This document shows, one piece after another, positions 8,211 to 28,229 of a stretch of DNA of 64,000 bases. Origin of the DNA: Bacillota bacterium. GTDB lineage: Bacteria > Bacillota > Halanaerobiia > Halanaerobiales > DATFIM01. The stretch covers positions 9,791 through 73,790 of the forward strand of contig JBNJDK010000002.1 in the NCBI GenBank assembly GCA_051744805.1. Reading direction: 5' to 3'. A program made the translations under genes and the position numbers. Within the stretch, counting starts at the first letter, position 1; the number at the start of each line of letters is the position of its first letter. The notes beneath the pieces are model-generated. The model worked only from the letters and a program-made list of their open reading frames with translations. It was not told the DNA's origin and searched no databases.

Positions 8211-9749
8211 TTACTCCCATTCAATAGTTCCAGGAGGTTTTGAAGTAATATCATAAACTACTCTATTTACAGAACTAACTTCATTAACAATTCTGTTAGA
8301 GATTCTTTCTAAAAGATCATAGGGTAATTTTACCCAATCTGCAGTCATAGCATCATCACTATTAACTGCTCTTAAAATAATAGGATAACCATAAGTTCTT
8401 TCATCTCCCATTACTCCAACACTTCTTAAATCAGGGAGAACTGCAAAAGACTGCCAGATTTCTTTTTGCATTCCTGCTTCTTTAATTTCTTCTCTTACAA
8501 TTGCATCTGCATCTCTTAAAATTTCTAATTTATCTGTACTTATTTTACCAATTATTCTGATAGCTAAACCAGGTCCTGGAAACGGTTGTCTCCAGACTAT
8601 TTCTGGAGGTAAACCAAGCACCTCTCCAATTTTTCGAACTTCATCTTTAAATAAAAAGCGGAGTGGTTCTACTAGTTTGAAATCCATATCCTCTGGCAAA
8701 CCACCAACATTATGATGACTCTTTATTGTTGCAGCTTCATCAGAACCTCCACTCTCTATAACATCTGAATAAATAGTTCCCTGAACTAAATATTCTGCAT
8801 CTTCTAATTTACTTGCTTCTTCTTCAAAAACTCTTATAAATTCATTACCTATAATTTTTCTTTTTTCTTCTGGATCCTGAACACCCTCAAGTTTTTCTAA
8901 AAATCTATCCTTAGCATCAACATATACTAATGGAATATTAAATTCTTCAGCAAAAGTCCTTTTAACCTGTTCTGGTTCACCTTTGCGTAAAAGTCCATGA
9001 TCTACAAAAATACAGGTTAATTGCTCTGAAATTGCTTTATAAACAAGTGCAGAAGCGACAGCAGAATCTACTCCACCAGAAAGTCCACAAATAACTTTTC
9101 CATCTTCTACTTTTTCCTGTACTTCTTCAATTTGTTCATTAATATAATCTGCCATATTCCAGGTAGCCTTTAAATCACAAATTTTAAATAAAAAATTATG
9201 CAGCATATTTTTTCCTTCAATTGTGTGGACTACCTCTGGATGAAACTGCACTCCATAAAAATCTCTATCTTTATTTTGAAAAGCTGCGGCTGGAGTTATT
9301 TCTGTTTTTGCCGTAATTTCAAAACCTTCTGGTTGTTTTTCTACTCTATCCCAGTGGCTCATCCAGACCTGACTCTTATTTTTTATCTCAGCAAAAATTC
9401 CTTCATTTTTCAGTATTTCAATTTTTGCTTTACCATATTCACCCTGTTCTGCTTTTTTAACTTTACCCCCAGCTAACTGTGAAGTCATAAGCTGCATACC
9501 ATAGCAAATACCGAGGATCGGGATGCCTAATTCATAAATTTCTTTATCAATTTTTGGTGAATTTTCTTCAGTTACACTATTAGGACCCCCAGAAAAAATA
9601 ATGCCTCCTGGATTGATTTTTTTTATTTTTTCAATATCTGTATGATAGGGTAATATCATTGAATATACATTAAATTCTCTAATTCTTCTTGCAATAAGTT
9701 GACTGTATTGTCCTCCAAAATCAAGAATTAAAATTTTATTTTCTACCAT
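8211..9749 (-). CDS. guaA: GMP synthase (glutamine-hydrolysing)
   Basis: GATase-1 domain ([14 protein letters not shown]), the ATP-PPase SGGVDS motif, and the C-terminal PPGTIEWE end typical of GuaA. Confidence 0.97.
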
Positions 9750-14104: not shown

Positions 14105-15118
14105 CTATAAACTTAAATTAGGATCAGCATTAAGACTGAGATCTGCAAAATCCTTTTTTTGATATTGATAATAAGCTACTGCCCCTATCATAGCTGCATT
14201 ATCAGTACATAAATTCAATTCTGGATAATAAAGAGGAAGATTTTTTCTATTTAACTTTTTTCTAAGCTGATTTCGTAGTTCTTGATTTGCAGCTACTCCA
14301 CCTGAAATAACTACACTTCCAACTTTATAATTTTCTACTGCTTTAATTACTTTTTGTAAAAGCGAATCAATAACTGCCTGTTGAAAACTGGCTGCTATAT
14401 CAGCAATATTAGGTTTATTACCTCTTTGTTTTTCATTATGAACATAATTGATTACAGCTGTTTTTAAACCACTAAAACTAAAATCATAAACCTCATCATT
14501 ATTAAAAGAACGGGGAAAATCAATAGCTTTTGGATTACCTTCTTTAGCTTTTTCTTCAATCACCGGGCCACCTGGATAGCCTAAATCAAGAAAACGGGCT
14601 ATTTTATCAAAAGCCTCTCCCGCTGCATCATCTCTAGTTCTACCTAAAATTTCATATCCACCTAAATTTTCAAAATAAAGAAGGTCAGTATGGCCACCAG
14701 AAATCGTTAAACAAATTACAGGAGTTTCAATCTCAGGGTTAGATATAAAATTTGCATAAATATGGCCAGCTATATGGTTTACACCTATAAAAGGTTTATC
14801 AAGGGCATAAGCCAGAGCTTTGGCAGTAGAAAGACCCACAAGCAACCCTCCAACTAAACCAGGACCATGAGTAGCAGCTATAGCATCAATTTGTTCTAAA
14901 TTAACTTTTGCTTCATCTAAAGCCTTTTCAATTACTGGATTTATAAATTCTAAATGTTTTCTAGATGCTATTTCAGGAACTACACCACCGAATTTGCGAT
15001 GCCAATCTACCTGGGAAGCTACTATATTAGAAAGAATATCAAGACCATTTTTAGTTACTGCTGCTGCAGTTTCATCACAGGAAGTTTCTAAAGCCAATAT
15101 ATATATATCTTTATCCAT
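14105..15118 (-). CDS. tsaD: tRNA N6-adenosine threonylcarbamoyltransferase TsaD
   Basis: ILALETSCDETAAAV, HIAGHI and the GVAAN motifs of Kae1/TsaD. Confidence 0.96.
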   Translation of the reverse strand: MDKDIYILALETSCDETAAAVTKNGLDILSNIVASQVDWHRKFGGVVPEIASRKHLEFINPVIEKALDEAKVNLEQIDAIAATHGPGLVGGLLVGLSTAKALAYALDKPFIGVNHIAGHIYANFISNPEIETPVICLTISGGHTDLLYFENLGGYEILGRTRDDAAGEAFDKIARFLDLGYPGGPVIEEKAKEGNPKAIDFPRSFNNDEVYDFSFSGLKTAVINYVHNEKQRGNKPNIADIAASFQQAVIDSLLQKVIKAVENYKVGSVVISGGVAANQELRNQLRKKLNRKNLPLYYPELNLCTDNAAMIGAVAYYQYQKKDFADLSLNADPNLSL

Positions 15119-15572
15119 TATTTATCACCTTCCACATTATTAAAGCATCTTCACCATCATTTTCATAATAATTTTTTTTATAATCTATAATTTCAAAATT
15201 TCTATTTTTATAAAAATCAATTGCAGTCTTATTGCTTTCCCTAACTTCAAGATATAAGTTAGATTTTCTAGACATTCCAGCAGTATTTTCTACATTTTTT
15301 AATAATAAAGAAGCAATACCCTTATTTTGAAATTTTTTTGCAACTGCCAGGTTTGTAATATGAATATATTCTTTTAAAATCCAAAATCCTATATATCCAA
15401 TAATAGCTCGACCTTTTCTGGCTACAAAATAAATAGCATGAGGATTTTTTTCTATTTCATTTATAAAAGCATTTTTTGACCAGGGGTCACTAAAAACCTC
15501 TTTCTCAATTTTCATCACTTTATTTATATCATCTATATCCATTAAATCTATTAGTATTTCCATATTACTCAC
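15111..15572 (-). CDS. rimI: Ribosomal-protein-alanine N-acetyltransferase (GNAT)
   Basis: GNAT motif A (VAKKFQNKGIASLLL) in the conserved tsaB-rimI-tsaD position, with overlapping stop and start codons. Confidence 0.85.
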   Translation of the reverse strand: MSNMEILIDLMDIDDINKVMKIEKEVFSDPWSKNAFINEIEKNPHAIYFVARKGRAIIGYIGFWILKEYIHITNLAVAKKFQNKGIASLLLKNVENTAGMSRKSNLYLEVRESNKTAIDFYKNRNFEIIDYKKNYYENDGEDALIMWKVINNG

Positions 15573-16290
15573 TTTCTATTTTCTTAAAATTTATTTCTGC
15601 CTGTGGTTTTTTGAGATAATTAGGAGTTAATTCAGCCACATTATGAGAAATATCTGCTTCAAAATAATTTTTTCCTAATTCTGCAATAATAGCCCCACGA
15701 GGGTTATTAAAAGAAGGATGGGCAAAGTTAGTATTAAGATCCACATTATTTAATAAATTTCTATATTTATCTACCCCATTACCTATAAAATATATTTTTT
15801 TATTATTAATTGAATCAATTAATTTTAATTCAGCTATCAATTCCTCTAATGACAGAGTAGTATCCTCCCATATTCTTTTGTTGCTGAAATTAACTTCTTT
15901 TAAATAATTATCAAAAAGAGCAGTATAAACTCTTTCTCTTCTGGCATCTATAATAGGTACTAATAATCCTTCAACATCCTTATAATTATATGCAAGAACT
16001 TCAAGAGAAGATAATCCAACAATTGGAATTTTTAATGCCTGAGCAAAACCTTTTACAGTACTTAAAGCAATTCTAAGGCCAGTGAAAGATCCAGGACCAA
16101 CTGTCACTGCAATGCCATTGATTTCATTGATACTATAATCAGATTCTTGAAATAAATGAGATATATTAGGTAAAAGTCTTTCACTATGTCGTCTATAAAG
16201 AGCCAAATTAATTTCACCAATAATTTTTTTGTCATCTAAAAGTGCTATTGCAGCCATTTCAGTACTTGAATCAATCCCTAATATTAACAT
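15565..16290 (-). CDS. tsaB: tRNA threonylcarbamoyladenosine biosynthesis protein TsaB
   Basis: ILGIDSST....ALLD, GPGSFTGLRI; operon context. Confidence 0.92.
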   Translation of the reverse strand: MLILGIDSSTEMAAIALLDDKKIIGEINLALYRRHSERLLPNISHLFQESDYSINEINGIAVTVGPGSFTGLRIALSTVKGFAQALKIPIVGLSSLEVLAYNYKDVEGLLVPIIDARRERVYTALFDNYLKEVNFSNKRIWEDTTLSLEELIAELKLIDSINNKKIYFIGNGVDKYRNLLNNVDLNTNFAHPSFNNPRGAIIAELGKNYFEADISHNVAELTPNYLKKPQAEINFKKIESE

Positions 16291-16753
16291 ATTCAGCCAA
16301 TCCTTTCATTAAATTTTTTGATTTTTTACCTTTAGCTTCAAATTTTAATTTTCGGGTATTATCAGAAATAATTTCAAAAGTTATCAACAAAAAATCTTCT
16401 GGTAGTAAACTATAAGCCAATTCTGGCCATTCTATTACAACAATTCCATCTCTATAAAGATAATCTTCAAAACCAATATTCAATAAATCCATTTCATTAT
16501 CCAAACGATATAAATCCATATGATAAAGTGGAATTTTACCAGGATATTCGTTAATTAAATTATAGGTTGGACTACTTACCTCTTTATTTAAATTTAAAGC
16601 CCCAGCTATACCTTTAACAAATCTAGTCTTACCACTACCTAAATCACCTTTTAATAAAATAATCTGACCTACTTTAGCATTTTTACCCAAGTTTTTTCCT
16701 AATTTTATAGTTTCATATTCATTATTGGATATAAAATATTTTTCTTTTTCCAT
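16271..16753 (-). CDS. tsaE: tRNA threonylcarbamoyladenosine biosynthesis ATPase TsaE
   Basis: P-loop GDLGSGKTRFVKG, SPTYNLINEY, HMDLYRL. Confidence 0.93.
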   Translation of the reverse strand: MEKEKYFISNNEYETIKLGKNLGKNAKVGQIILLKGDLGSGKTRFVKGIAGALNLNKEVSSPTYNLINEYPGKIPLYHMDLYRLDNEMDLLNIGFEDYLYRDGIVVIEWPELAYSLLPEDFLLITFEIISDNTRKLKFEAKGKKSKNLMKGLAEYVNIRD

Positions 16754-16767
16754 TGTTTATAACTCCT

Positions 16768-17310
16768 CTATTGTCGCAATTCCTTTAAATTTTCCTCTAA
16801 ATAATCATTTATCCAATCTACAATCTCAGGATGATTTATTTCTAAACCTTCAATTTCTTTCTTTAATTCCTCTGTATTTAATTCAAATTCTTTATCATTG
16901 TATATATGTTTATATATAAAATCAAGCTGAGGATTAGTTATTATTAATGAAACTATTGTTCCAACTATATCCCCTAAAGGGGCCCGATCAATATGATCAT
17001 ATTGAAATTCAACTTCTAGCTTTGTTCCTTTTTCTTTTTTAGAATCAATTTTTAATTTACCATTACAGTTTTCAGCTGCTTTTTTTAAAAAAGGTAGTCC
17101 TAACCCTACTTCTCTAGTAGTTCTGCTCGTTACAAAAGGGTCAAGAACTTCTTTTTGTTGATCTCTATCCATCCCTGTACCATCATCATTTATTTTTATT
17201 TTAAGTAAATTTTGATCAATTTTTTCAATTATAATAATTTCTACCTTCTCAGCTTCTGCAGCAATTGAATTCTGAACAATATCTAAAATATGTAAAGAAA
17301 TTTCTTTCAT
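16768..17310 (-). CDS. Stand-alone GHKL (histidine-kinase-like) ATPase-domain protein
   Basis: N-box HILDIVQNSIAA, G1 DDGTGM, G2 GLGLPF. No DHp/His-phosphotransfer or sensor domain. About 70 extra C-terminal residues. Confidence 0.75.
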   Translation of the reverse strand: MKEISLHILDIVQNSIAAEAEKVEIIIIEKIDQNLLKIKINDDGTGMDRDQQKEVLDPFVTSRTTREVGLGLPFLKKAAENCNGKLKIDSKKEKGTKLEVEFQYDHIDRAPLGDIVGTIVSLIITNPQLDFIYKHIYNDKEFELNTEELKKEIEGLEINHPEIVDWINDYLEENLKELRQ

Positions 17311-17437: not shown

Positions 17438-19159
17438 CTAATTTCTATCTCTTCTTTTATAAGTTGTATGAAGTAAATGATGAGAATCTCCACTAAGTGG
17501 TTCACCAAGGTATTCTTCATAAAGTCTTACTATCATTGGATTTTCATGTGACTTTCTAATCGCTTTACTTTCATCAATACTGGAAAGTCCTTTTCCTCTT
17601 TTTTCTTTTATATCTTTATCTACTGGTAAAGGCTGTCCTCCTCCACCAACACATCCATTAGGACAGGCCATTATTTCAATAAAATCATACTTGCATTCTC
17701 CAGCTTTAACTTTATCTAATAATTCTGCTGCTCTTGATAAGCCATTTGCAATTGCTATATTTAAGGTTTGATCTCCAATTTTTACTTCAACCTCATTAAC
17801 TCCTCTAAAACCAAGATCCAGTCTTTCTAATTCTTCACCGGTTAATTTTTCTTTTACTGTTCTAGCTGCAGCTTCGGCAACTCCTCCGGTTGTACCAAAA
17901 ATAGTTCCAGCTCCTGTAGATTTACCCATCATTTCATCATATTCCTGATCTTCCAGACGAGTGAAATCAAGCCCTATTTCTCTAATCATTCTTGCCAACT
18001 CTCTAGTAGTTAACACTGCATCAGTATCTTTATAACCACTATCATTCATTTCTTTTCTATCTTTTTCAAACTTTTTGGCGGTACAGGGCATAATTGAAAC
18101 TGTATAAATATTTTCTGGATCTATACCACTCTCTTCTGCATAATAAGTTTTTGCAAGAGCAGAAAACATTTGTTGAGGCGATTTCGCTGTAGAAAGATTA
18201 TCCAGAAGTTCTGGATAATTGTGTTCAGCAAATTTTACCCAACCTGGACAACAGGAAGTAATTTGTGGTAAATCTTTTTGCCCTTTTATTCTTTTTAATA
18301 ATTCATTACCTTCTTCCATAATGGTAAGATCAGCAGTAAATTCAGTTGAAAATACTTTGTCAAATCCTATTTTTCTTAAAGAAGCCACCAATTTACCAGT
18401 TACAACTGTTCCAGGTTCATATCCAAATTCTTCACCTAGAGTAGCCTGAATAGCTGGAGCAGTTTGTACTATTACATGTTTTTCTTCATCTTCAATAGCA
18501 TTCCATACTCTATCAATTTCACTAATTTCAGTTATTGCACCTACTGGACAGACTGTTGCACATTGACCACAGTTAGCACAATTAATTTCACTTTGGGGCA
18601 TGTCAAAAGCTGTTTGAACAACTGTATCAAATCCACGTCCACTAAACTGTAAGGCTGAAACCCCTTGGACTTCTTCGCAGACTCTTACACAACGACCACA
18701 TAATATACATTTGTTAGGATCCCTTTTTAAAGCAGGTCCTGTATTATCTATTGTATTTTCACGAGTTTCTCCTTTTAATTCTTCCATATCGTCACTATTT
18801 ATACCTAAACTATAGGTTATATCCTGTAATTCACAACTGCCATTTCTATCACAACCAAGACAATCATTAGGGTGATTGGCCAGTAGTAATTTTACATTTC
18901 TTCTTCTGGCTTTTCTGGCTCTTGCACTTCTAGTATTAATTTTCATCCCATCCTGGGCAGGTGTACAACAGGAAGCAAGTAATTCACCTGATTCTTTATC
19001 TTCAACTACACAAACCCTACATGCACCGTGAATTGTAAGATCAGGGTGATAGCATAAAGTTGGAACATCAATTCCTAATTCTTTAGCTGCATCGAGAATA
19101 GTTGCTCCTTCTTCAACCTGAATTTCCTCATTATCTATAATTAAATTTATTTCGGACAT
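17438..19159 (-). CDS. hndD: [FeFe]-hydrogenase catalytic subunit (HndD / HydA of an electron-bifurcating, NAD(P)-linked complex)
   Basis: Complete H-cluster motifs TSCCPGW, MPCTAKKFE and MACPNGCVGGGGQP. N-terminal 2Fe-2S fold plus His-ligated and 2x[4Fe-4S] motifs (CILCGRCVRVC, CANCGQCATVCP). Confidence 0.95.
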   Translation of the reverse strand: MSEINLIIDNEEIQVEEGATILDAAKELGIDVPTLCYHPDLTIHGACRVCVVEDKESGELLASCCTPAQDGMKINTRSARARKARRRNVKLLLANHPNDCLGCDRNGSCELQDITYSLGINSDDMEELKGETRENTIDNTGPALKRDPNKCILCGRCVRVCEEVQGVSALQFSGRGFDTVVQTAFDMPQSEINCANCGQCATVCPVGAITEISEIDRVWNAIEDEEKHVIVQTAPAIQATLGEEFGYEPGTVVTGKLVASLRKIGFDKVFSTEFTADLTIMEEGNELLKRIKGQKDLPQITSCCPGWVKFAEHNYPELLDNLSTAKSPQQMFSALAKTYYAEESGIDPENIYTVSIMPCTAKKFEKDRKEMNDSGYKDTDAVLTTRELARMIREIGLDFTRLEDQEYDEMMGKSTGAGTIFGTTGGVAEAAARTVKEKLTGEELERLDLGFRGVNEVEVKIGDQTLNIAIANGLSRAAELLDKVKAGECKYDFIEIMACPNGCVGGGGQPLPVDKDIKEKRGKGLSSIDESKAIRKSHENPMIVRLYEEYLGEPLSGDSHHLLHTTYKRRDRN

Positions 19160-19183: not shown

Positions 19184-20986
19184 CTATCCCTGTGATATTG
19201 CATCTACTGGACAAACTTCTTCACAGGCTCCACAGGAAATACATTTATCTGGGTCAATTTCATAAACTTCTTTTGATTTTCCACTTATAGCATCTACCGG
19301 ACATTCTTTTGCACACATACCACAACCAATACATGTATCTTCATCTATTACATATGCACTTGCCATTCCCGGGCAAACTCCTGCCGGACATTTTTTATCA
19401 TAAATATGTGCTTCATATTCATCTCTAAAATACTGTAAAGTTGAAAGAACAGGATTAGGAGCAGACTGACCTAAACCACAAAGAGCTGTATCTTTAATAT
19501 GATTTGCCAGTTCTTCAAGTAATTGAATATCTCCTTCTTCACCTTTCCCATCACATAATCTATTTAAAATCTCAAGCATTCTTTTTGTTCCCTCACGACA
19601 GGGAGTACATTTGCCACATGATTCACTTTGAGTAAAGTTAAGGAAAAAACGAGCAACATCAACCATACAGGTACTATCATCCATTACAACCATACCACCT
19701 GAACCCATCATAGCTCCAACTTCAAGAAGCGAATCATAATCTATCGGTAAATCAAGATAGTCAGCTGGTATACACCCACCAGATGGACCACCAGTTTGCA
19801 CTGCCTTAAATTCTCTGCCTTCAGCAAGACCTCCACCTATATCAAAGATGACTTCTTTTAAAGTAGTACCCATCGGTACTTCAACAAGCCCTGTGTTATT
19901 AATTTTACCTGTTAAGGCAAAAACTTTTGTACCACTACTATTTTCAGTACCTATAGAAGCAAAATCTTTTCCGCCATTATTAATGATATATGGTATATTA
20001 CCAAAAGTCTCAACATTATTTATATTGGTTGGCTTACCCCATAAACCTTTATTTGCTGGATATGGTGGACGAGGTCTTGGCATACCTCTTTTACCTTCAA
20101 TTGAAGCCATGAGTGCTGTTTCCTCTCCACAAACAAAAGCACCAGCACCTTTTTTAATATTTAATTCAAAATCAAATCCACTATTAAATAGATTTTCACC
20201 TAAAAGACCATATTCTTCAGCATCTTTAATGGCTTTTTTAAGTCTTTCAATTGCAAGAGGATATTCAGCTCTTACATAGACATAACCTTCATTTGCTCCA
20301 ATAGCATAAGCCCCAATAATCATACCCTCTATTATACGATGTGGATCCCCCTCAAGTAAACTTCTATCCATAAAGGCTCCAGGATCTCCTTCATCAGCAT
20401 TACAAATTATATATTTTTTATCACCTTCAGCAGAATTAGCAAACTGCCACTTTAAACCAGTGGGAAAGCCTCCTCCACCTCTACCTCTTAAACCAGAATC
20501 TTTTACTTCTGAAATTATTTCTTCTGGCTTCATTTCAGTTAAAGCTTTACCAGCAGCTTCATAGCCATCAGAAGCTATATATTCATCAATATTTTCAGGA
20601 TCTATTTTTCCACAATTTGATAATACTATTCTTTGCTGTTTTTTATAAAAATCAATATCCTGATAAGAAGGAATACTCTCTTCAGTCATTGGTTCTTTAA
20701 ACAATAGACGTTCTACAGTTCTTCCTTTAAGCAAATGTTCTTCTACAACTTCTTCCATATCTTCAGGCTTTAATTCACAATAAAAAACTCCTTCAGGATA
20801 AATAACCATAATAGGTCCTTTTTCACAAAATCCATGACATCCTGTTTCTACAACTTTAATTTCATCTAAGAGATCATGTTTTGCAAGTTCATCCTGCAAA
20901 CTAAGTTTTACATTTTCTGCACCTGAAGACTTACAACCTGTTCCAGTACAGATCAAAATATGAGAACGATATATAGTTTCATTCAT
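19184..20986 (-). CDS. hndC: NuoF-like NAD(P)H/FMN-binding flavoprotein subunit (HndC / HydB)
   Basis: GLRGRGGGGFPTGLKW, ESCGKCTPCREG, an N-terminal thioredoxin-like 2Fe-2S segment and two C-terminal ferredoxin motifs (CIGCGMCAKECP, CISCGACEEVCP). Confidence 0.95.
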   Translation of the reverse strand: MNETIYRSHILICTGTGCKSSGAENVKLSLQDELAKHDLLDEIKVVETGCHGFCEKGPIMVIYPEGVFYCELKPEDMEEVVEEHLLKGRTVERLLFKEPMTEESIPSYQDIDFYKKQQRIVLSNCGKIDPENIDEYIASDGYEAAGKALTEMKPEEIISEVKDSGLRGRGGGGFPTGLKWQFANSAEGDKKYIICNADEGDPGAFMDRSLLEGDPHRIIEGMIIGAYAIGANEGYVYVRAEYPLAIERLKKAIKDAEEYGLLGENLFNSGFDFELNIKKGAGAFVCGEETALMASIEGKRGMPRPRPPYPANKGLWGKPTNINNVETFGNIPYIINNGGKDFASIGTENSSGTKVFALTGKINNTGLVEVPMGTTLKEVIFDIGGGLAEGREFKAVQTGGPSGGCIPADYLDLPIDYDSLLEVGAMMGSGGMVVMDDSTCMVDVARFFLNFTQSESCGKCTPCREGTKRMLEILNRLCDGKGEEGDIQLLEELANHIKDTALCGLGQSAPNPVLSTLQYFRDEYEAHIYDKKCPAGVCPGMASAYVIDEDTCIGCGMCAKECPVDAISGKSKEVYEIDPDKCISCGACEEVCPVDAISQG

Positions 20987-21010: not shown

Positions 21011-21376
21011 TTATTCTTCCATTCGAGCAATAACAAGATCTTTTACAACATTTCCATTTATAACGTGTTCTACAATTATTTTGCTTACATCTGAAGGTTC
21101 AAGATTTCCATAAGTTATTCTTTCTTTTCCAGGTAATTTCACATCAAGTAACGGCTCTTTTTCACACATACCTATACAACCAGTTTGTGTTACTGTAACA
21201 TCAATATCTCTTTTATTAACTTCTTCCATTACTTTTTTAAGGATTTCTCTTGCTCCAGCTGCTATGCCACAGGTTCCCATTCCAACAATTATTTTAGGTT
21301 TCTCTGTATTATCTCTTGCATCAAGATCTTTTTTAACTTTATCTCTTAATTCATGTAATTCTTCAAGAGATTTCAT
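21011..21376 (-). CDS. hndB: Small thioredoxin-like [2Fe-2S] ferredoxin subunit (HndB-like)
   Basis: GMGTCGIAAGAR ... TGCIGMCEKEP. Start moved to ATG 21376 (GAGAGGTGGG, 7 nt, ATG). Confidence 0.85.
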   Translation of the reverse strand: MKSLEELHELRDKVKKDLDARDNTEKPKIIVGMGTCGIAAGAREILKKVMEEVNKRDIDVTVTQTGCIGMCEKEPLLDVKLPGKERITYGNLEPSDVSKIIVEHVINGNVVKDLVIARMEE

Positions 21377-21409
21377 CTTTAATCCCACCTCTCTATGTCT
21401 ATTAATGTC

Positions 21410-21910
21410 TTAGTCTTTATATTGTTCAATAATTTCTGGTACTTTTTCCGGTGTCAAACGTCCATGAGTATCATCATTAATCATAATAACCGGTGCTAAA
21501 CCACAGGCACCAATACAGGCAACAGTTTCTAAAGTGAATTCAAGATCTTCGGTAGTTTCTCCACTTTCAATACCAAGCTCTTCTTCAATTTTTTCTAAAA
21601 CTGGCCCTGCACCCCTAACATGACAGGCTGTACCCTGACATACTCTAATAATATTCTTTCCTCGAGGTTCTAAATGAAACTGACCATAAAAAGTAACTAC
21701 TCCATAAACCTGGCTTAAAGAAAGGTTTAAATTACAGGCTATTTCTTTCATAACATCTTCAGGCAAATACCCATATTCATTTTGGGCATCTTGAAGAATA
21801 GGAATAAGGTTCTTTTCACTTTTTTCATAGTCAGCCATAATATTATACAGAGGTTTTAGATACTTTTCTAAATTCTTTTTTTCATTACCACAATTACAGT
21901 TACAAGACAT
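21410..21910 (-). CDS. hndA: NuoE-like [2Fe-2S] subunit (HndA / HydC)
   Basis: RVCQGTACHVRG ... VACIGACGLAPV, the NuoE/HoxE Cys pattern. First gene after the promoter. Confidence 0.93.
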   Translation of the reverse strand: MSCNCNCGNEKKNLEKYLKPLYNIMADYEKSEKNLIPILQDAQNEYGYLPEDVMKEIACNLNLSLSQVYGVVTFYGQFHLEPRGKNIIRVCQGTACHVRGAGPVLEKIEEELGIESGETTEDLEFTLETVACIGACGLAPVIMINDDTHGRLTPEKVPEIIEQYKD

Positions 21911-21996: not shown

Positions 21997-22025
21997 ATTA
22001 TATGTTACAAAAAAATCAATGTCAA
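21997..22025 (-). promoter_or_regulatory. Consensus sigma-A promoter of the hnd operon
   Basis: Minus strand: TTGACA (22025-22020), 17 nt, TATAAT (22002-21997), starting 4 nt after the PHP gene stop. Confidence 0.75.
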
Positions 22026-22028
22026 TAG

Positions 22029-22754
22029 TTAATTTAAGTCAAAATTACCAGATTTCAAATTTTTAAATAAATTTTCAAAATTACAGTTTTTAAAACTTGA
22101 TTTATACATTATTTTAATGTCATCTAAATAATGACTATCAGAATTTTTAAGTAATATATATTTTTTTAAATAAGGATACTGCTGCTTTAATTTTTTTCTA
22201 TTTGAATTTTTAGATATTTCTAGAATTTTAAAATTCAAATCTTTTGGAATAAAACCTAAATTTTTTATAATTCCATAACTTTTATCTATGTGAGACGGAA
22301 TAACAATTCCATTCATTTTACTAACTTTACTCACTATTTGATTTATATTTAAATTTACAGCTGTAGCCAACATTCTCTTTTCTTTTGCCTTATAATTATC
22401 ATTTTTATCAGTTAATAATTGATAACCAAAGTATTCTTCATCATTTTCAAGTTCTGGTAAATTTTTATAAATAATTTTTTGCCAGTCAATTAGTCGTTTT
22501 AAATCTGGAAAAAAACAGAGTAAATGTATTTCTTCAGAACTCTCTACTTCCATTCCAGGAATAACAGTAATTCCATATTTTTCAGCTAATTTTATTGTCA
22601 TCTCAACGTTTTTTGCACTATTATGATCAGTTATTGCAATAATATCAAGACCTATTTCATTGGCTTTTTTTAAAATATTTGCAGGTGTCATAACTAAACT
22701 TGCACAGGGAGATAATACAGAATGAATATGAAGATCTATATTATATTTTTTCAT
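22029..22754 (-). CDS. PHP-domain (polymerase/histidinol-phosphatase-type) phosphoesterase
   Basis: N-terminal DLHIHSVLSPCA ... IIAITDHNS, typical of PHP metal-site motifs. Overlaps the upstream gene by 4 nt. Confidence 0.85.
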   Translation of the reverse strand: MKKYNIDLHIHSVLSPCASLVMTPANILKKANEIGLDIIAITDHNSAKNVEMTIKLAEKYGITVIPGMEVESSEEIHLLCFFPDLKRLIDWQKIIYKNLPELENDEEYFGYQLLTDKNDNYKAKEKRMLATAVNLNINQIVSKVSKMNGIVIPSHIDKSYGIIKNLGFIPKDLNFKILEISKNSNRKKLKQQYPYLKKYILLKNSDSHYLDDIKIMYKSSFKNCNFENLFKNLKSGNFDLN

Positions 22755-23101
22755 TTTTTATCTTCTACCTGATTATCTTTTAATTGGTATAATAAACCAG
22801 CCAATTCGTAACTAGTAAGCTTAGAACGTAGAATATTAACTCCTTTTTCTTTAGCTCTTTTAATTGCTTTATCTTCTATTTCAAAATTTTCAGCCACTAC
22901 AACTGCAGCTACCTCTGTCAAGAGAGCAACAGCAATGACATTTTGATGGCTTTGAACTGTAAACCAGAGATCTCCTTTCTGAGCTTTAGCCATTACATTA
23001 CTTAAAAGATCTCCACAATATCCTCCCTCTACTTCTACTTCTAATGATGTTTCTACAACAATTTCTAAATCTAATTTATCGATTATCTTTTTTAATTTCA
23101 T
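22751..23101 (-). CDS. DRTGG-domain protein (paralog 2)
   Basis: About 116 aa, similar in length and pattern to the 24905-25261 product (MKL.K....L......, CG(A/G)DL(M/L)S(D/N)V(L/M)A, (AKE/K)KG(I/V), LL). Start set to ATG 23101 (MKLKKIIDKL); the longer track ORF overlaps the upstream gene further. Confidence 0.7.
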   Translation of the reverse strand: MKLKKIIDKLDLEIVVETSLEVEVEGGYCGDLLSNVMAKAQKGDLWFTVQSHQNVIAVALLTEVAAVVVAENFEIEDKAIKRAKEKGVNILRSKLTSYELAGLLYQLKDNQVEDKK

Positions 23102-24446
23102 CTTCTTCCACCTCACTTTCTTTACCCATAACTGGAGGAAGCTCATGTGCTAATGCTGACATTTCATCAGCAAGATCTCCAACTTTTTTCCTCAACATAA
23201 ATATACAATCTGTTCTTTTGGCCTGACCATTAACTATATCTTCAGCTAAAGTTTCACAGTCTGGTGCTCCACAGGCAGCACAATCAAGACCAGGCAAAAT
23301 TTCAATTTCTTCTTCAATAGCTGTTAATTTTTCCATTGCTTTATCTAAATCTTCATCAAGTTTAGCCACATCTGTAGCCTTAAATTCCTGACTAAGTTCA
23401 TAATTATAAGCTGAAAAATTCTGATCAACCATTAATTTCTCTGGAGATTCATTTTTATATTTTTCAACTAATTTTTTTATATTATATTTAGCCTGATAAG
23501 AATTATTAACATTTAAAACTCCCCCAACACAACCCTGGGGACAGGAAACTAACTCAAAATATTTGATACCTTTAATATTATCACGAGAAATTTCTTCTAA
23601 AATACCTTTAACTTCTTTAATACCAGAAACAGAAATAGTCTCTTTTTCATCATAATCATTCAAAATTTCTTCTTCTCCTCCACTTTGCCCCCAACTAATC
23701 CCTAAAAAAGGACGATCTTCATAATTTTTATCATCTGATGCCATTTTTTCTTCTAAATCATATTCTTCCATTATATCAAGTAATTTATCATAAATTTTTT
23801 CAACAGCAATTGCTCCATCTAAAAAACTTTTTTCCTGGCCTAAAGGGTTTTCAACAGTAGTTAATTTCGCCGGACAGGGAGTTATAAAAAATACACCGAT
23901 TTCATTTTTTGAAATATTCTTCTTTTTTGAAATTTCTCTTTTTACTTTTTCAGCCATTAATTCAACAGGAGATTTAATAGGCACTAAATTTTCCAGTAAT
24001 TCTGGAAACACTAATTTTATTAATCTTACTACAACAGGACAGGATGAAGAAATATAAGGGCCTTCATTTTTAGTTAAAAATTCCTGTGTTTTTTGGGATA
24101 TAGCCTCTGCAGCCATTGCTACATCAAATACTCCTGAAAAGCCTGTCATTTTTAAGCCTTTATAAATTTTATTAATATCTAATTTTTCATTAAATTGTCC
24201 ATAAAAACTTGGGGGAATTAAAGCACAGGAAAATTTATAATTATTTATTTCATCTATATTATTAGTTTCAGTATATTTAGCATGATATTCACAAGTTCTA
24301 ATACATTCTGCACAATCTATACAGAGATCCTCTTTAATCTGAGCTTTACCCTGGTGAACCCTAATTGCTTTTGTTGGACAATTTTTTACACAATTAGTAC
24401 ATCCCTCACATTTATCTTCTTTTAAAAGAACAGAATGTTTTTTCAT
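23076..24446 (-). CDS. [FeFe]-hydrogenase-like Fe-S protein with degenerate H-cluster motifs (putative sensory hydrogenase, HydS-like, group D / M2e type)
   Basis: 2x[4Fe-4S] motifs CEGCTNCVKNCP and CIDCAECIRTCE. H-domain variants SSSCPVVV, TPCPAK and VSCPQGCVGG. C-terminal CAACGAPDC-X16-C (Cx2Cx4Cx16C). Start moved to ATG 24446 (AGGTGA, 5 nt, ATG). Confidence 0.75.
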   Translation of the reverse strand: MKKHSVLLKEDKCEGCTNCVKNCPTKAIRVHQGKAQIKEDLCIDCAECIRTCEYHAKYTETNNIDEINNYKFSCALIPPSFYGQFNEKLDINKIYKGLKMTGFSGVFDVAMAAEAISQKTQEFLTKNEGPYISSSCPVVVRLIKLVFPELLENLVPIKSPVELMAEKVKREISKKKNISKNEIGVFFITPCPAKLTTVENPLGQEKSFLDGAIAVEKIYDKLLDIMEEYDLEEKMASDDKNYEDRPFLGISWGQSGGEEEILNDYDEKETISVSGIKEVKGILEEISRDNIKGIKYFELVSCPQGCVGGVLNVNNSYQAKYNIKKLVEKYKNESPEKLMVDQNFSAYNYELSQEFKATDVAKLDEDLDKAMEKLTAIEEEIEILPGLDCAACGAPDCETLAEDIVNGQAKRTDCIFMLRKKVGDLADEMSALAHELPPVMGKESEVEEDEIKKDNR

Positions 24447-24466
24447 ACTTTTCACCTACTCTCCAC

Positions 24467-24889
24467 TTAAACATTTAATACTGCTTTTATAGTTGTTCCT
24501 TCATTTTCAGAAGATTTTATATCTAACTGATCTGAATACTTTTCTACATTATTTAAACCCATTCCAGCTCCAAAACCTAATTCGCGTATTTCATCTTCAG
24601 CAGTTGAATATCCAGCCTGTAAGGCTTTATCTACATCTTTTATTCCAGGGCCATCATCCTCGGCAAAAATTTGCACTTCATTATTGGCAATTATAGCTGT
24701 TATTTTACCACCTTCAGAATGAATTATTATATTCATTTCTAATTCATAGGTAATAATAGAGATTTTTCTTATAATCTGAGTATCTACTCCTAACTTTCGC
24801 AAAAGAGATTTTAATTTACTGGAAACTTCTCCACCTTTTTTGAAATTTCTTCTCTCTATTTCTTCTTCAAGTAATTTTTTACTACCCAA
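24467..24889 (-). CDS. Small stand-alone GHKL ATPase (anti-sigma-factor-kinase-like, SpoIIAB/RsbW-like)
   Basis: 140 aa. E..(M)N...H N-box region, DDGPGI (G1), GFGAGMGL (G2). No DHp domain. TTG start after GGAGGA plus 6 nt. Confidence 0.75.
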   Translation of the reverse strand: MGSKKLLEEEIERRNFKKGGEVSSKLKSLLRKLGVDTQIIRKISIITYELEMNIIIHSEGGKITAIIANNEVQIFAEDDGPGIKDVDKALQAGYSTAEDEIRELGFGAGMGLNNVEKYSDQLDIKSSENEGTTIKAVLNV

Positions 24890-24904
24890 AATAATTCCTC
24901 CACT

Positions 24905-25261
24905 CTACTCAATTTCTTGTAATTTTTCTGGTCTTATCCCATTACTATACAATAAACCACAACTTTCAAATAATGGTTTTTTACTATAAAAAAGTTTAAT
25001 CCCTTTTTCTTTAGCAAGTTGAACCGTATCTAAAACAGGTTTTTTACCTCTTACAAAACAGATAACTTCAATATCTGTCATTTCTGCTGTTCTAACAACC
25101 TGAGGATTTGTAAGGCCAGTAAGAAGCATAGTTTTGCTATGGGAAAAGGCCAAAACATCACTCATTAAATCAGCTCCACAGGCTGTTTCTATTTCCACAT
25201 CTTCATATTCTTCAAAAACTGATTCAGCCCCTAACAATTCAACTACTTTAGTTAATTTCAT
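24905..25261 (-). CDS. DRTGG-domain protein (paralog 1)
   Basis: 118 aa. ACGADLMSDVLAF..., LLTGL.NPQVVRTAEM; first gene of the cassette, SD GGAGG upstream. Confidence 0.7.
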   Translation of the reverse strand: MKLTKVVELLGAESVFEEYEDVEIETACGADLMSDVLAFSHSKTMLLTGLTNPQVVRTAEMTDIEVICFVRGKKPVLDTVQLAKEKGIKLFYSKKPLFESCGLLYSNGIRPEKLQEIE

Positions 25262-25288
25262 ATAAAAACCTCCAGGATTTTGCTAGTA

Positions 25289-25306
25289 TTGTGATTTTTA
25301 TAACAA
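25289..25306. promoter_or_regulatory. Candidate Rex (NADH/NAD+-sensing repressor) operator
   Basis: TTGTGAT-TTTT-ATAACAA against TTGTKAA-N4-TTMACAA. The deviations are symmetric. Lies between the -10 box and the SD of the first cassette gene. Confidence 0.4.
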
Positions 25307-25327
25307 TATTTCCATTAATTTATTTTA

Positions 25328-25356
25328 ATTATACGATAATCAAGACAAATTATCAA
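25328..25356 (-). promoter_or_regulatory. Sigma-A promoter of the sensory cassette
   Basis: Minus strand: TTGATA (25356-25351), 17 nt, TATAAT (25333-25328). Confidence 0.65.
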
Positions 25357-25361
25357 CTAGA

Positions 25362-25397
25362 AATAGCAGCCCCTTCTAGCAATTAAGGGCTGCTATT
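25362..25397 (-). terminator. Hairpin terminator after the amidohydrolase gene
   Basis: ATAGCAGCCC (25363-25372) pairs with GGGCTGCTAT (25387-25396). The U-run is strong on the plus reading and weaker on the minus reading. Confidence 0.55.
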
Positions 25398-25424
25398 TTT
25401 TATTATTAATCATTTCAATGATAA

Positions 25425-26576
25425 TTATTCTTCTATTTTTTCTCCACTAATAAATACTGTATCTATTTTTGAGTTAAAATCAAAAGGATCACCATCAAAT
25501 ATTACTAAATCTGCATCTTTTCCTTTTTTAATACTTCCAATTTTATCATCCACACCTAAAATTTCTGCTGGATTAATAGTAATTGCTTTAAGTGCCTCTT
25601 TTCTATCCATACCTGATCTCACAGCTAAGGCTGCATACACAGGTAAGTAATGAATTGGAACTACTGGATGGTCACTCATAAGAGCTACTTTTACTCCTGC
25701 TTCAGCAAGTATTCCAGGAGTTTCATATGTTCTATCCATTAATTCAACTTTAGATCTCGTTGTAAGAGAAGGTCCTACAATAGCAGGGAAACCAGCATCT
25801 ACTATTTCCTTAACTACTTTATGACCTTCAGTACAATGTTCTAAAGTAACTTCAATATCAAATTCTTTTGCAATTCTAATAATAGTCATTATATCATCAG
25901 CACGATGTGCATGAGCTTTAAGAGGTAATTCTTTTTTGAGAACCCTGCTGATACTTTCCATTTTTATATCTCTTTTAAAAGGCTTATCCTCTTCTTCTGT
26001 ATGTGTTTTTTCTTTAAGATAGTCTTCAGCCTTCATGAATGTTTCTCTCATTTCAGCCGCTACTGCCATCCGTGTACGAGGACTTTTGTTTTGATCATTA
26101 TATACTCTTTTAGGATTTTCACCAAAAGCAGCTTTCATTCCTGCTGGATTTTTAACTATCATTTCATCTACAGTATTGCCCTTAGTTTTTAAAACTAAAT
26201 TTTCTCCTCCAATTACATTGGCACTCCCTGGGCCAGTCATTAAAGAAGTAATACCATGAGTTCTTGCATCTTTCATTCCTTCTTCATGTGGATTAATAGC
26301 ATCTATTGCTCTTAGATGAGGTGTAATAGGATCTGACATTTCATTATAATCTGCACCTTCCCACCCAATTCCTTCTTCACTAATTCCAACATGAGTATGA
26401 GCATCTATCATACCTGGCATCATAACTTTACCATTAGCTTCATATACTTCAGCCTCAGCTGGTATTTCCAGGTTTTCACCAATTTCTTTTATTTTACCTT
26501 CTTCAATTATAACTGTTCCCTTTTCATAATCCTTAGATTCCATTGTCAAAATTTTAGCACCTTTAATAGCTATCAT
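25425..26576 (-). CDS. Metal-dependent amidohydrolase-superfamily protein (COG1228-like)
   Basis: PGMIDAHTHVG (HxH metal site) and C-terminal GKDADLV..D, typical of amidohydrolase_1 enzymes. Confidence 0.8.
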   Translation of the reverse strand: MIAIKGAKILTMESKDYEKGTVIIEEGKIKEIGENLEIPAEAEVYEANGKVMMPGMIDAHTHVGISEEGIGWEGADYNEMSDPITPHLRAIDAINPHEEGMKDARTHGITSLMTGPGSANVIGGENLVLKTKGNTVDEMIVKNPAGMKAAFGENPKRVYNDQNKSPRTRMAVAAEMRETFMKAEDYLKEKTHTEEEDKPFKRDIKMESISRVLKKELPLKAHAHRADDIMTIIRIAKEFDIEVTLEHCTEGHKVVKEIVDAGFPAIVGPSLTTRSKVELMDRTYETPGILAEAGVKVALMSDHPVVPIHYLPVYAALAVRSGMDRKEALKAITINPAEILGVDDKIGSIKKGKDADLVIFDGDPFDFNSKIDTVFISGEKIEE

Positions 26577-27754: not shown

Positions 27755-28105
27755 TTATAGATCTATTAAACCCAGGCTAATTTCAACTGCCTTATTAACT
27801 TTTTTTATAATTTCTTCATCCAAACTAGTTACTTTTCTTTGTAATCTTTTTTTGTCAAGAGTTCTTATTTGTTCTAATAAAATAACTGAATCCTTTTTTA
27901 AACTACTAACCTCTGCAGGAATCTCTACATGAGTAGGTAACTTTGCTTTATCAATTTTTGAAGTAATAGCTGCAACAATAATTGTTGGACTATATTTATT
28001 ACCTATATCATTTTGAATTACCACTACAGGACGAACTCCTCCCTGTTCAGAACCAATAACCGGGTTCAGATCAGCATAAAACACATCCCCTCTATTAACA
28101 TCCAC
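27755..28105 (-). CDS. mazF: MazF/EndoA (PemK-family) type II toxin endoribonuclease
   Basis: [45 protein letters not shown]...KLPTHVEI...[17 protein letters not shown] is nearly collinear with B. subtilis EndoA as I recall it. Start set to GTG 28105 (GGAG, 10 nt), giving 116 aa. Confidence 0.9.
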
Positions 28106-28229
28106 TTTATTCACACTCCAGTTAATCACACTTGGATAAACTTTCAAATTTCATTAAACAATTTTTCCAATTTCTACTTACTTTTGATAAATATGTAATT
28201 TAATAAACATAAAAACAAGACAATGAGGA

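Follow-up and report, generated by a model that had tools for sequence, protein, structure and literature searches.

We analyzed a 64,000-nucleotide stretch of a Halanaerobiales genome (Bacillota bacterium, GenBank assembly GCA_051744805.1, contig JBNJDK010000002.1, positions 9,791 to 73,790; hereafter the window), in which five closely packed genes lie immediately upstream of an operon for an [FeFe] hydrogenase, hndABCD. In the order of transcription, the five genes encode a DRTGG protein (D1), a GHKL ATPase (K140), a hydrogenase-like iron-sulfur protein (HydS-like), a second DRTGG protein (D2), and a PHP metal-dependent phosphoesterase (PHP). A first-pass annotation, made from the sequence alone, had described this minus-strand cassette as having its own promoter and adjoining the promoter of an hndABCD-type operon, and our analysis confirmed that observation (Table 1). 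The cassette appears to be a self-contained, widely conserved signaling unit that serves as accessory module to a putative H2-sensing [FeFe] hydrogenase of group D (M2e).

The genes are as tightly packed as the annotation had stated. D1 and K140 are separated by 15 nucleotides (nt), HydS-like and D2 overlap by 26 nt, and D2 and PHP overlap by 4 nt (ATGA). The gap between K140 and HydS-like is 11 nt from the GTG start of HydS-like and 20 nt from its ATG start; the earlier figures of 11 nt and 456 amino acids belonged to the GTG and the ATG start, respectively. The D2 open reading frame (ORF) extends to position 23146, and the start at 23101 (MKLKK) agrees with its homologues. The PHP stop codon lies 3 nt, not 4 nt as first reported, from the −35 hexamer of the hnd promoter.

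In a 13-kb scan, the two best sigma-70-like matches were the two sites that had been proposed as promoters, and they occupy the sole two sizeable intergenic gaps. Because promoter-like sites as a whole were no more frequent than expected (71, versus 62.6 in shuffled sequence), we regard the two promoters as plausible but unproven. The upstream amidohydrolase gene (25425-26576) probably terminates at a stable hairpin that directly precedes the cassette −35 hexamer and would set the 5′ limit of the cassette transcript. At the other end, no terminator was found to separate PHP from hndA, and transcription may continue from the cassette into hnd. A known regulatory RNA in the leaders was considered and rejected: neither of the two leader regions had an Rfam match at E ≤ 0.1, and folding revealed no significant structure in the hnd 5′ untranslated region.

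Table 1. Coordinates of the cassette, the hnd operon, and associated sequence features in the window
Feature	Position	Strand	Size or evidence
Hairpin	25361-25398	-	14-bp stem, -22.1 kcal/mol, z = -3.7, 0/200 shuffles as stable
Cassette sigma-70-type promoter-like site, TTGATA-17-TATAAT	25328-25356	-	11/12 match, second best in 13 kb
Weak Rex-box-like palindrome, TTGTGATTTTTATAACAA	25289-25306		3 mismatches; between -10 hexamer and D1 ribosome-binding site
DRTGG1 (D1)	24905-25261	-	ORF, 118 amino acids
K140 (GHKL ATPase)	24467-24889	-	ORF, 140 amino acids, TTG start
HydS-like	23076-24455 (GTG start) or 23076-24446 (ATG start)	-	ORF, 459 or 456 amino acids, respectively
DRTGG2 (D2)	22751-23101	-	ORF, 116 amino acids
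PHP metal-dependent phosphoesterase	22029-22754	-	ORF, 241 amino acids
hnd promoter-like site, TTGACA-17-TATAAT	21997-22025	-	12/12 match, best sigma-70-like match in 13 kb
hndA (NuoE-like)	21410-21910	-	Pfam
hndB (small 2Fe-2S)	21011-21388	-	Pfam
hndC (NuoF-like)	19184-20986	-	Pfam
hndD ([FeFe] hydrogenase)	17438-19159	-	Pfam and NCBIfam NF040763
K180, orphan GHKL gene after hndD	16768-17310	-	Pfam histidine-kinase-type ATPase (CA) domain

Proteins of the cassette and of the hnd operon

The central protein contains two Fer4 domains, an Fe_hyd_lg_C domain (E = 1.6e-32), and a PF04060 FeS domain (residues 384 to 416), and it had no Pfam match to a PAS domain. Its H-cluster ligands C136, C191, C302, and C306 were invariant in 43 diverse homologues, as were the eight N-terminal cysteines that form two [4Fe-4S] motifs and the four C-terminal cysteines. 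Compared with HndD of the same window, HydS-like reads ISSSCPVV for ITSCCPGW, ITPCPAKL for IMPCTAKK, and ELVSCPQGC for EIMACPNGC. With SSSCP, TPC, and VSC in place of TSCCP, MPC, and MAC, the proton-relay cysteine (C299 of CpI) and the flanking methionines (M353 and M497) are therefore replaced. Loss of this cysteine and of the two methionines defines the M2e or group D class (Land et al. 2020, PMC8163306).

HydS-like agrees with group D at every sequence-level feature examined, namely, the ligands, the cluster motifs, the lack of a PAS domain, the motif losses, and the genomic position upstream of a multimeric bifurcating-type group A hydrogenase (hndABCD). By architecture and motifs, it is a putative sensory [FeFe] hydrogenase of group D (M2e). 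The alignment and the comparison with HndD thus bear out the annotation's description of a protein that keeps its Fe-S and H-cluster ligands while its catalytic motifs are changed, and the architecture and motif changes fit the putative H2-sensor identity that it had been given. The family comprised 325 representatives at E ≤ 1e-30 (50% clustering). The closest relatives of HydS-like are in the Halanaerobiales, and an orthologue from Thermoanaerobacterium (locus L033) is 42% identical to it.

K140 matched the Pfam families HATPase_c (PF02518) and HATPase_c_2 (PF13581; 31.7 bits against a cutoff of 27.4), and its closest solved relative in the PDB was SpoIIAB (E = 7e-6). The N box (E49, N53, H57), the G1 box (D78xGxG82), and the G2 box (G105 to L112) were conserved at about 100%. 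It is best described as a stand-alone SpoIIAB-like GHKL ATPase and putative Ser/Thr kinase, much as it had been annotated (a 140-amino-acid stand-alone GHKL ATPase resembling the SpoIIAB/RsbW kinases), and it lies below the NCBIfam cutoff for SpoIIAB itself.

The two small proteins on either side had been called paralogous DRTGG proteins, and this was upheld by different evidence for each. D2 matched the Pfam DRTGG family (34.8 bits, cutoff 25.2) and Hpr_kinase_N. D1 had no Pfam match; its sequence identity with D2 is 30% (E = 4e-15). An AlphaFold2 model of D1 with a predicted local distance difference test (pLDDT) score of 89.5 matched the DRTGG protein AF1212 (2IOJ) with a template modeling (TM) score of 0.79, the DRTGG domain of a CBS-pyrophosphatase (TM score of about 0.69), and the N-terminal domains of Mur ligases and HprK; no STAS structure was among the matches of the model. 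As modeled, D1 is a very conserved DRTGG-fold protein and is not STAS-like. Ten of its residues (D31, S34, D35, N52, R57, T58, E60, D63, R71, and K73) were nearly invariant. The model places them where strands end and helices begin, and the generic DRTGG protein AF1212 does not have them. D2 shares only D31, S34, T48, and N54, and the D31/S34 motif, invariant in both D1 and D2, is a candidate modification site.

In the solved proteins matched by the D1 model, DRTGG is a regulatory or dimerizing domain on phospho-transfer enzymes. We propose D1 as a docking or regulatory partner, or a substrate, of K140. Of the two roles originally suggested for the DRTGG proteins, targets or adaptors, the gene fusions and gene coupling described below fit docking or regulatory subunits at least as well as targets.

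PHP matched its Pfam family (PF02811) with 41.1 bits against a cutoff of 26.4. Nine metal ligands (H9, H11, D43, H44, E69, H77, H155, D206, and H208) were invariant, as was an S15-P16-C17 motif. A PHP profile matched EndoQ (7e-14), a Bifidobacterium phosphoesterase (3e0f), RNase AM (2.8e-11), and the pAp phosphatase 2yb1 in the PDB; it aligned with both halves of EndoQ, the Zn ribbon of which is not found in PHP. PHP thus appears to belong to the EndoQ/TrpH branch. No protein phosphatase of the CpsB/YwqE type was among the PDB matches at E ≤ 10, which leaves the role of PHP as an "eraser" of a covalent modification, as first proposed, with no homology in its favor. Below threshold, NCBIfam gave matches to the TrlF and Ppl PHP nuclease-type domains. 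A defense system pairing a GHKL ATPase with a PHP nuclease was considered and rejected, as PADLOC returned no meaningful matches. Judged by their invariant ATP-binding boxes and metal ligands, K140 and PHP are both likely to be competent enzymes.

Downstream of the cassette, HndD passed the NCBIfam model for NADH-dependent [FeFe] hydrogenase (NF040763) with 850 bits against a cutoff of 765, and hndABCD is predicted to encode an NADH-linked hydrogenase of the bifurcating type, the bifurcation itself being putative. This operon is the probable object of regulation by the cassette. It is followed by K180, an orphan GHKL gene that the first reading had overlooked and that is likely to be a sixth component, coinherited with the hnd operon. 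The PDB profile matches of K180 were to histidine-kinase CA domains only, and no DHp domain was found in it. Its C-terminal 80 or so amino acids form an uncharacterized domain with an H-box-like SHIDRxPLGD motif. The histidine of this motif was about 70% conserved, which is too weak for a phospho-accepting residue, and we rejected that role for it. K180 lies between hndA and hndB in most lineages and after hndD in the window and in locus L122.

Two further observations concern this region. The ORFs that follow K180 (14105-16753, minus strand) resemble tsaE, tsaB, rimI, and tsaD, genes of t6A tRNA modification, judging from their translations. A 143-amino-acid ORF antisense within hndC (19848-20279, plus strand) is most likely spurious.

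Conservation, gene fusions, and replacement of the sensor

We looked for related cassettes in two ways. A scan with a sensor profile, one genome per species, gave 580 relatives confirmed by tblastn, and locus counts were taken from 80 of these; locus genes were assigned with purpose-built profiles, and 60 of the 80 loci had enough flanking sequence for partners to be counted. An independent scan of metagenome contigs was anchored on K180, and the two scans together covered 160 loci. The exact order D1, K140, HydS, D2, PHP was found in 58 of the 80 loci. All four partners of HydS were present in 55 of the 60 loci, as separate genes in 52 and with D1 and K140 fused in 3; the other five were reduced modules with K140 only (three loci) or with D1 and K140 only (two loci). 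K140 was therefore beside HydS in all 60. D2 and PHP occurred together in 55 and were both missing from 5; neither was ever found singly. A conserved neighborhood was one of the checks that the annotation had set for its own proposal, and these counts speak in its favor.

The loci came from at least six phyla. Within the Bacillota they were found in Halanaerobiales, Oscillospiraceae, Thermoanaerobacterales, Negativicutes, and Peptococcaceae, and they were also present in Atribacterota, Spirochaetota, Coprothermobacterota, Armatimonadota, and Syntrophorhabdales. Median spacing was −4 nt between D1 and K140, −0.5 nt between D2 and PHP, and 140 nt between PHP and hnd.

The cassette is not strictly tied to hydrogenase operons. 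About 40 of the 58 complete cassettes have an hnd-type operon downstream, and 14 have unrelated genes there, as in Atribacteria, where valS-SPOR lies on one side of the cassette and mraZ-mraW-ftsL-PBP-murE on the other. Cassettes away from hnd indicate a self-contained module that is usually, not always, beside a hydrogenase. Approached from the hydrogenase side, 18 of 24 K180-anchored metagenome loci with at least 5 kb of upstream sequence had a cassette, which was divergent in four of these.

Gene fusions join each neighboring pair from D1 to D2. D1 is fused to K140 in three genomes (L011, L024, and L026), one of which belongs to an isolate, Tepidanaerobacter sp. GT38. Among 149 HydS cluster representatives, one had K140 fused to HydS (P0134), two had D1 fused to the N terminus of HydS (P0173 and P0195), and eight had D2 fused to its C terminus. 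All of the fusions follow the gene order, and separate profiles distinguished D1 from D2 correctly. Pairwise fusions in gene order suggest a single complex of D1, K140, HydS, and D2.

In nine metagenome loci, a pair of CBS domains fused to the N terminus of K140 (for example, L108:7011-7994) stands in for K140 and HydS, and D1, D2, PHP, K180, and hnd are retained. This variant was complete in L108, L118, L132, L136, L144, and L155 and partial in L096, L101, and L145. Two further loci (L116 and L137) had a cassette without any sensor. That a CBS pair can replace HydS while the rest is kept argues for signaling rather than catalysis.

The search for an output

The first-pass annotation had found no recognizable output domain in any of the five proteins, and our searches agree. 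Pfam and NCBIfam gave no helix-turn-helix (HTH), receiver, STAS, DHp, sigma, or cyclase domain in the five, no output domain recurred in the 160 related loci, and profiles from Pfam, NCBIfam, and the PDB found no DHp/HisKA or receiver domain in K140, K180, or the cassette proteins. The flanks were equally uninformative. When 473 flanking ORFs were clustered, no family occurred in more than 8 of the 80 loci, and no sigma, STAS, receiver, HTH, or PP2C family recurred near the cassettes. A recurrent neighboring regulator was therefore rejected; spot checks gave lineage-specific SPOR, SdpI, PemK, CheW, and GGDEF-EAL proteins and a likewise lineage-specific OmpR-type two-component system with GerM.

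Several of these neighbors may be recorded here. In Atribacteria, Thermoanaerobacterium, and other Bacillota, the gene that immediately precedes D1 encodes a SPOR-domain protein (L016:8509-9135, L033:7364-8161, L019:5484-6395, and L047:7828-8793), which may mean that the chromosomal site, close to valS and the dcw cluster, is itself conserved. A stand-alone CheW gene (L017:9050-9514 and L034:8484-8936) is directly upstream of reduced K140-HydS modules, with or without D1, that have neither D2 nor PHP. Sir2 lies farther upstream at each of these two loci, and a CN-hydrolase lies downstream. In L023, a partial receiver domain precedes K140-HydS. A 7TM-GGDEF-EAL gene is directly downstream of PHP in L014 (12662-15781), L018, and L074, which are metagenome-assembled genomes with no adjacent hnd. 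In a Halanaerobium locus (L003), a PemK toxin gene identified by Pfam (8547-8963) is directly upstream of D1, and in the window, an ORF read from its translation as a MazF/PemK-like toxin (27755-28147, minus strand) lies two genes upstream of the cassette.

We propose a model in which the H2 state of HydS would set the balance between a DRTGG-docked ATPase or kinase and a DRTGG-docked phosphoesterase, with Hnd as the object; taken as a whole, and drawn largely from sequence, it seems to us evenly poised between right and wrong. HydS is flanked by two pairs, each of a DRTGG protein and an enzyme, with D1 and K140 on the upstream side and D2 and PHP on the downstream side. HydS would bind an H-cluster, and its turnover of H2 would be slow owing to replacement of the catalytic proton-relay cysteine, as its motifs and published work on the group D protein TamHydS of Thermoanaerobacter mathranii suggest. 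D1, K140, HydS, and D2 would make up one complex, to judge from the gene fusions and gene coupling. In it, D1 and K140 would dock at the ferredoxin-like N terminus of HydS, and D2, bringing PHP with it, would dock at the FeS domain of the C terminus. The H2-dependent redox or conformational state of HydS would then balance ATP-dependent activity of K140 against hydrolysis by PHP, and the resulting state of the module might tune the neighboring Hnd after transcription, probably together with K180. The specific version that we prefer, in which K140 phosphorylates the family-specific, invariant Ser34 of the DRTGG proteins and PHP reverses the modification, is tentative and, in our estimate, more likely wrong than right.

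Several points weigh against this model. D1 lacks a STAS-like fold, so the action of a SpoIIAB-type kinase on a DRTGG domain would be without precedent, and K140, at 54 bits, is well under the NCBIfam SpoIIAB (TIGR01925) cutoff of 135. Among solved structures, PHP is nearest to nucleases and nucleotide phosphoesterases and not to protein phosphatases. H2 fails to reduce the C-terminal cluster of TamHydS (PMC13104023), which leaves the trigger undefined. The target need not be the adjacent Hnd, given the 14 of 58 complete cassettes that have no hydrogenase downstream, and 6 of the 24 K180 loci have no cassette. Finally, most of the fused genes were predicted in metagenomes, and frameshifts could account for some of them.

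The strongest competitor makes PHP itself the effector. PHP would be a D2-regulated nuclease or nucleotide phosphodiesterase gated by H2, with D1 and K140 as an ATP-driven conformational switch, and the output would be hydrolytic cleavage of an mRNA, such as hnd transcripts, of a short RNA, or of a nucleotide, such as a signal nucleotide. The solved relatives of PHP (EndoQ, RNase AM, 3e0f, and 2yb1, with no protein phosphatase at E ≤ 10) and its subthreshold TrlF and Ppl matches all lean this way. So do the strict coinheritance and translational coupling of D2 and PHP, the place of PHP as the final gene of the cassette, abutting the hnd promoter, and the role of DRTGG as a regulatory or dimerizing domain on solved phospho-transfer enzymes, to be compared with the CBS-DRTGG inserts that regulate DHH pyrophosphatases. 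At 241 amino acids against 400, however, PHP lacks not only the Zn ribbon of EndoQ but also its C-terminal DNA-binding parts, and no cyclase or synthetase for a nucleotide signal was found in the cassette. The reduced K140-HydS modules without PHP indicate, moreover, that PHP is not the sole output. We consider this explanation unlikely, if the best of the alternatives.

True partner switching would make K140 an anti-sigma kinase that holds a sigma factor or other regulator encoded elsewhere, with the DRTGG proteins as anti-anti-sigma analogues and PHP as the phosphatase. SpoIIAB is indeed the best relative of K140 among both solved structures and NCBIfam models, and orthologues of K140 are publicly annotated as "anti-sigma regulatory factor (Ser/Thr protein kinase)." Like STAS antagonists, the two DRTGG proteins are small (about 116 amino acids) and consist of a single alpha/beta domain, and cassettes remote from hydrogenase genes would suit a diffusible output. 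The fold of D1 is DRTGG, though, not STAS, so that the partner switching raised in the first-pass annotation stands as an analogy only. The fusions of K140 to HydS, to D1, or to a CBS pair suggest a fixed sensor complex instead, and no sigma or STAS gene was found in any of the 160 neighborhoods. An alternative sigma factor is an unlikely route of output here because both promoters of the window match the housekeeping consensus and because no sigma, STAS, receiver, or HTH gene recurs. Partner switching in the strict sense is accordingly improbable in our judgment.

We also considered whether the cassette might not signal at all and might instead supply assembly, repair, or activation factors for Hnd or a low-activity catalytic hydrogenase complex with a metabolic role of its own. 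The hnd operon is adjacent in about 40 of the 58 complete loci, and HydS retains all of its cluster ligands. GHKL ATPases include chaperones. K140 is, however, of the SpoIIAB type, not of the Hsp90 or MutL type; the cassette also occurs away from hydrogenase operons; and the remainder is kept where a CBS pair replaces HydS. TamHydS, moreover, is reported to be slow and CO-tolerant, like regulatory hydrogenases (PMC8163306). A nonsignaling role is very improbable on this evidence.

It is also conceivable that the NADH sensor Rex alone regulates hnd, the cassette being a passenger of the same regulon. In related loci, Rex boxes with at most two mismatches were about 30-fold enriched upstream of D1 (L012, L043, L047, L056, L068, and L070) and in the PHP-hndA spacer (L001, L021, L044, and L045); rex overlaps the cassette start by 4 nt in L011, L024, and L026; and hydrogenase genes are under Rex control elsewhere (PMC5886521). 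We rejected Rex as the hidden output, since rex is adjacent in only 7 of the 80 loci, there is no rex gene within the window, and the window's Rex-box-like sites (6, versus 8.6 expected) include a 3-mismatch copy upstream of D1 that is not above chance. Rex alone would also leave the conservation of five genes across phyla unexplained, and we give this explanation hardly any credence.

Relation to known systems and significance

Clusters of this type were known before, and the locus joins the putative sensory group D (TamHydS-type) clusters, the mechanism of which is unsolved. That M2e hydrogenases are encoded close to kinases and bifurcating hydrogenases had been pointed out in 2012 (PMC3561251) and again in 2020 (PMC8163306). 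In 2026 the interaction partners of group D HydS were described as unidentified, and finding them as the critical missing step (PMC13104023), so the annotation was right that the downstream pathway has not been worked out. The searchable literature, which leaves most subscription journals outside its reach, yielded no paper linking DRTGG or PHP proteins to hydrogenases and no mechanistic study of DRTGG with a hydrogenase or of M2e with a histidine kinase. What is new here are candidates, with D1, K140, and D2 proposed as members of a complex with HydS, PHP added as a coinherited enzyme, and K180 found on the side of the hydrogenase.

HydS-like and TamHydS have the same plan: two N-terminal [4Fe-4S] motifs, an H-domain, a C-terminal four-cysteine cluster, and no PAS domain (PMC8163306). 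In both, the proton-relay cysteine is gone, as are the two flanking methionines, and both are encoded upstream of a bifurcating-type hydrogenase, beside a "histidine kinase-like ATPase" (PMC8163306). The Thermoanaerobacterium locus has the same five-gene order as the window. The copy described here differs in coming from a Halanaerobiales-like metagenome-assembled genome and in having K180 after hndD and not between hndA and hndB. In the TamHydS literature that we searched, the DRTGG and PHP genes are unanalyzed and the partners are called unknown (PMC8163306, PMC13104023). An AraC regulator beside HydS, as cited for TamHydS, was looked for and not found. The "AraC regulator" said to flank TamHydS (PMC8163306) is probably a misnamed DRTGG protein, since public records call such proteins (for example, Thermoanaerobacterium AFK87136 and AFK87139) "transcriptional regulator" or "predicted transcriptional regulator containing CBS domains" in some cases, and no HTH is detectable in them.

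Group C (M2f) HydS proteins (TmHydS of Thermotoga maritima, HydS of Ruminococcus albus, and HfsB of Thermoanaerobacterium) are likewise slow H-cluster sensors. They carry a [4Fe-4S] cluster at the C terminus, and their genes lie close to those of bifurcating hydrogenases and of protein kinases or phosphatases. They have a PAS domain and classical kinases and phosphatases, whereas the protein in the window has no PAS domain and its partners are DRTGG, SpoIIAB-like GHKL, and PHP proteins. The [NiFe] systems HoxBC-HoxJ-HoxA and HupUV-HupT-HupR also use a crippled hydrogenase as an H2 sensor that controls a catalytic one (PMC8163306), but their metal centre is unrelated, and they rely on a PAS-histidine kinase and a response regulator, neither of which occurs here.

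The partner-switching modules SpoIIAB-SpoIIAA-SpoIIE and RsbW-RsbV-RsbU resemble the cassette in having a GHKL protein of about 140 amino acids with intact ATP boxes, small partners of about 116 amino acids, and a phosphohydrolase. They differ from the cassette, which has no STAS fold, PHP instead of PP2C, no neighboring sigma gene, and a kinase that is often fused to the sensor. With STAS, PP2C, and sigma genes looked for at the loci and absent, although a partner might be encoded elsewhere, the cassette does not appear to be a member of SpoIIAB-type partner switching, nor, lacking DHp and receiver domains, does it appear to be a two-component system. The CBS-DRTGG inserts of family II pyrophosphatases (PDB 3L31 and 3L2B) also combine DRTGG, a sensor, and a metal phosphoesterase, and the resemblance is greatest for the CBS variant of the cassette. 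There, a single polypeptide of the DHH type does what would be divided here among separate proteins, with PHP as the phosphoesterase and a GHKL ATPase in addition.

It is possible, if on balance doubtful, that D1, K140, D2, and PHP, with K180, form an undescribed signal-transduction chassis that is indifferent to its sensor, a third design beside two-component and STAS partner-switching systems. DRTGG proteins would stand where the other designs have STAS or receiver domains. An H-cluster protein or a CBS pair would provide the input, and the output, instead of DNA binding, would be either posttranslational control of an electron-bifurcating hydrogenase or the PHP-catalyzed hydrolysis of a nucleotide or RNA.

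Group D putative H2-sensing [FeFe] hydrogenases have been studied by spectroscopy for years. The analysis makes the open question of their signaling testable by naming partners, a geometry, the D31/S34 motif, a polar pocket of D1, and, in the loci where CBS replaces HydS, a natural control. If true, such a chassis would explain how many fermenters and syntrophs adjust H2 production to the partial pressure of H2, and it would bear on gut and sediment ecology and on biohydrogen and ethanol engineering.

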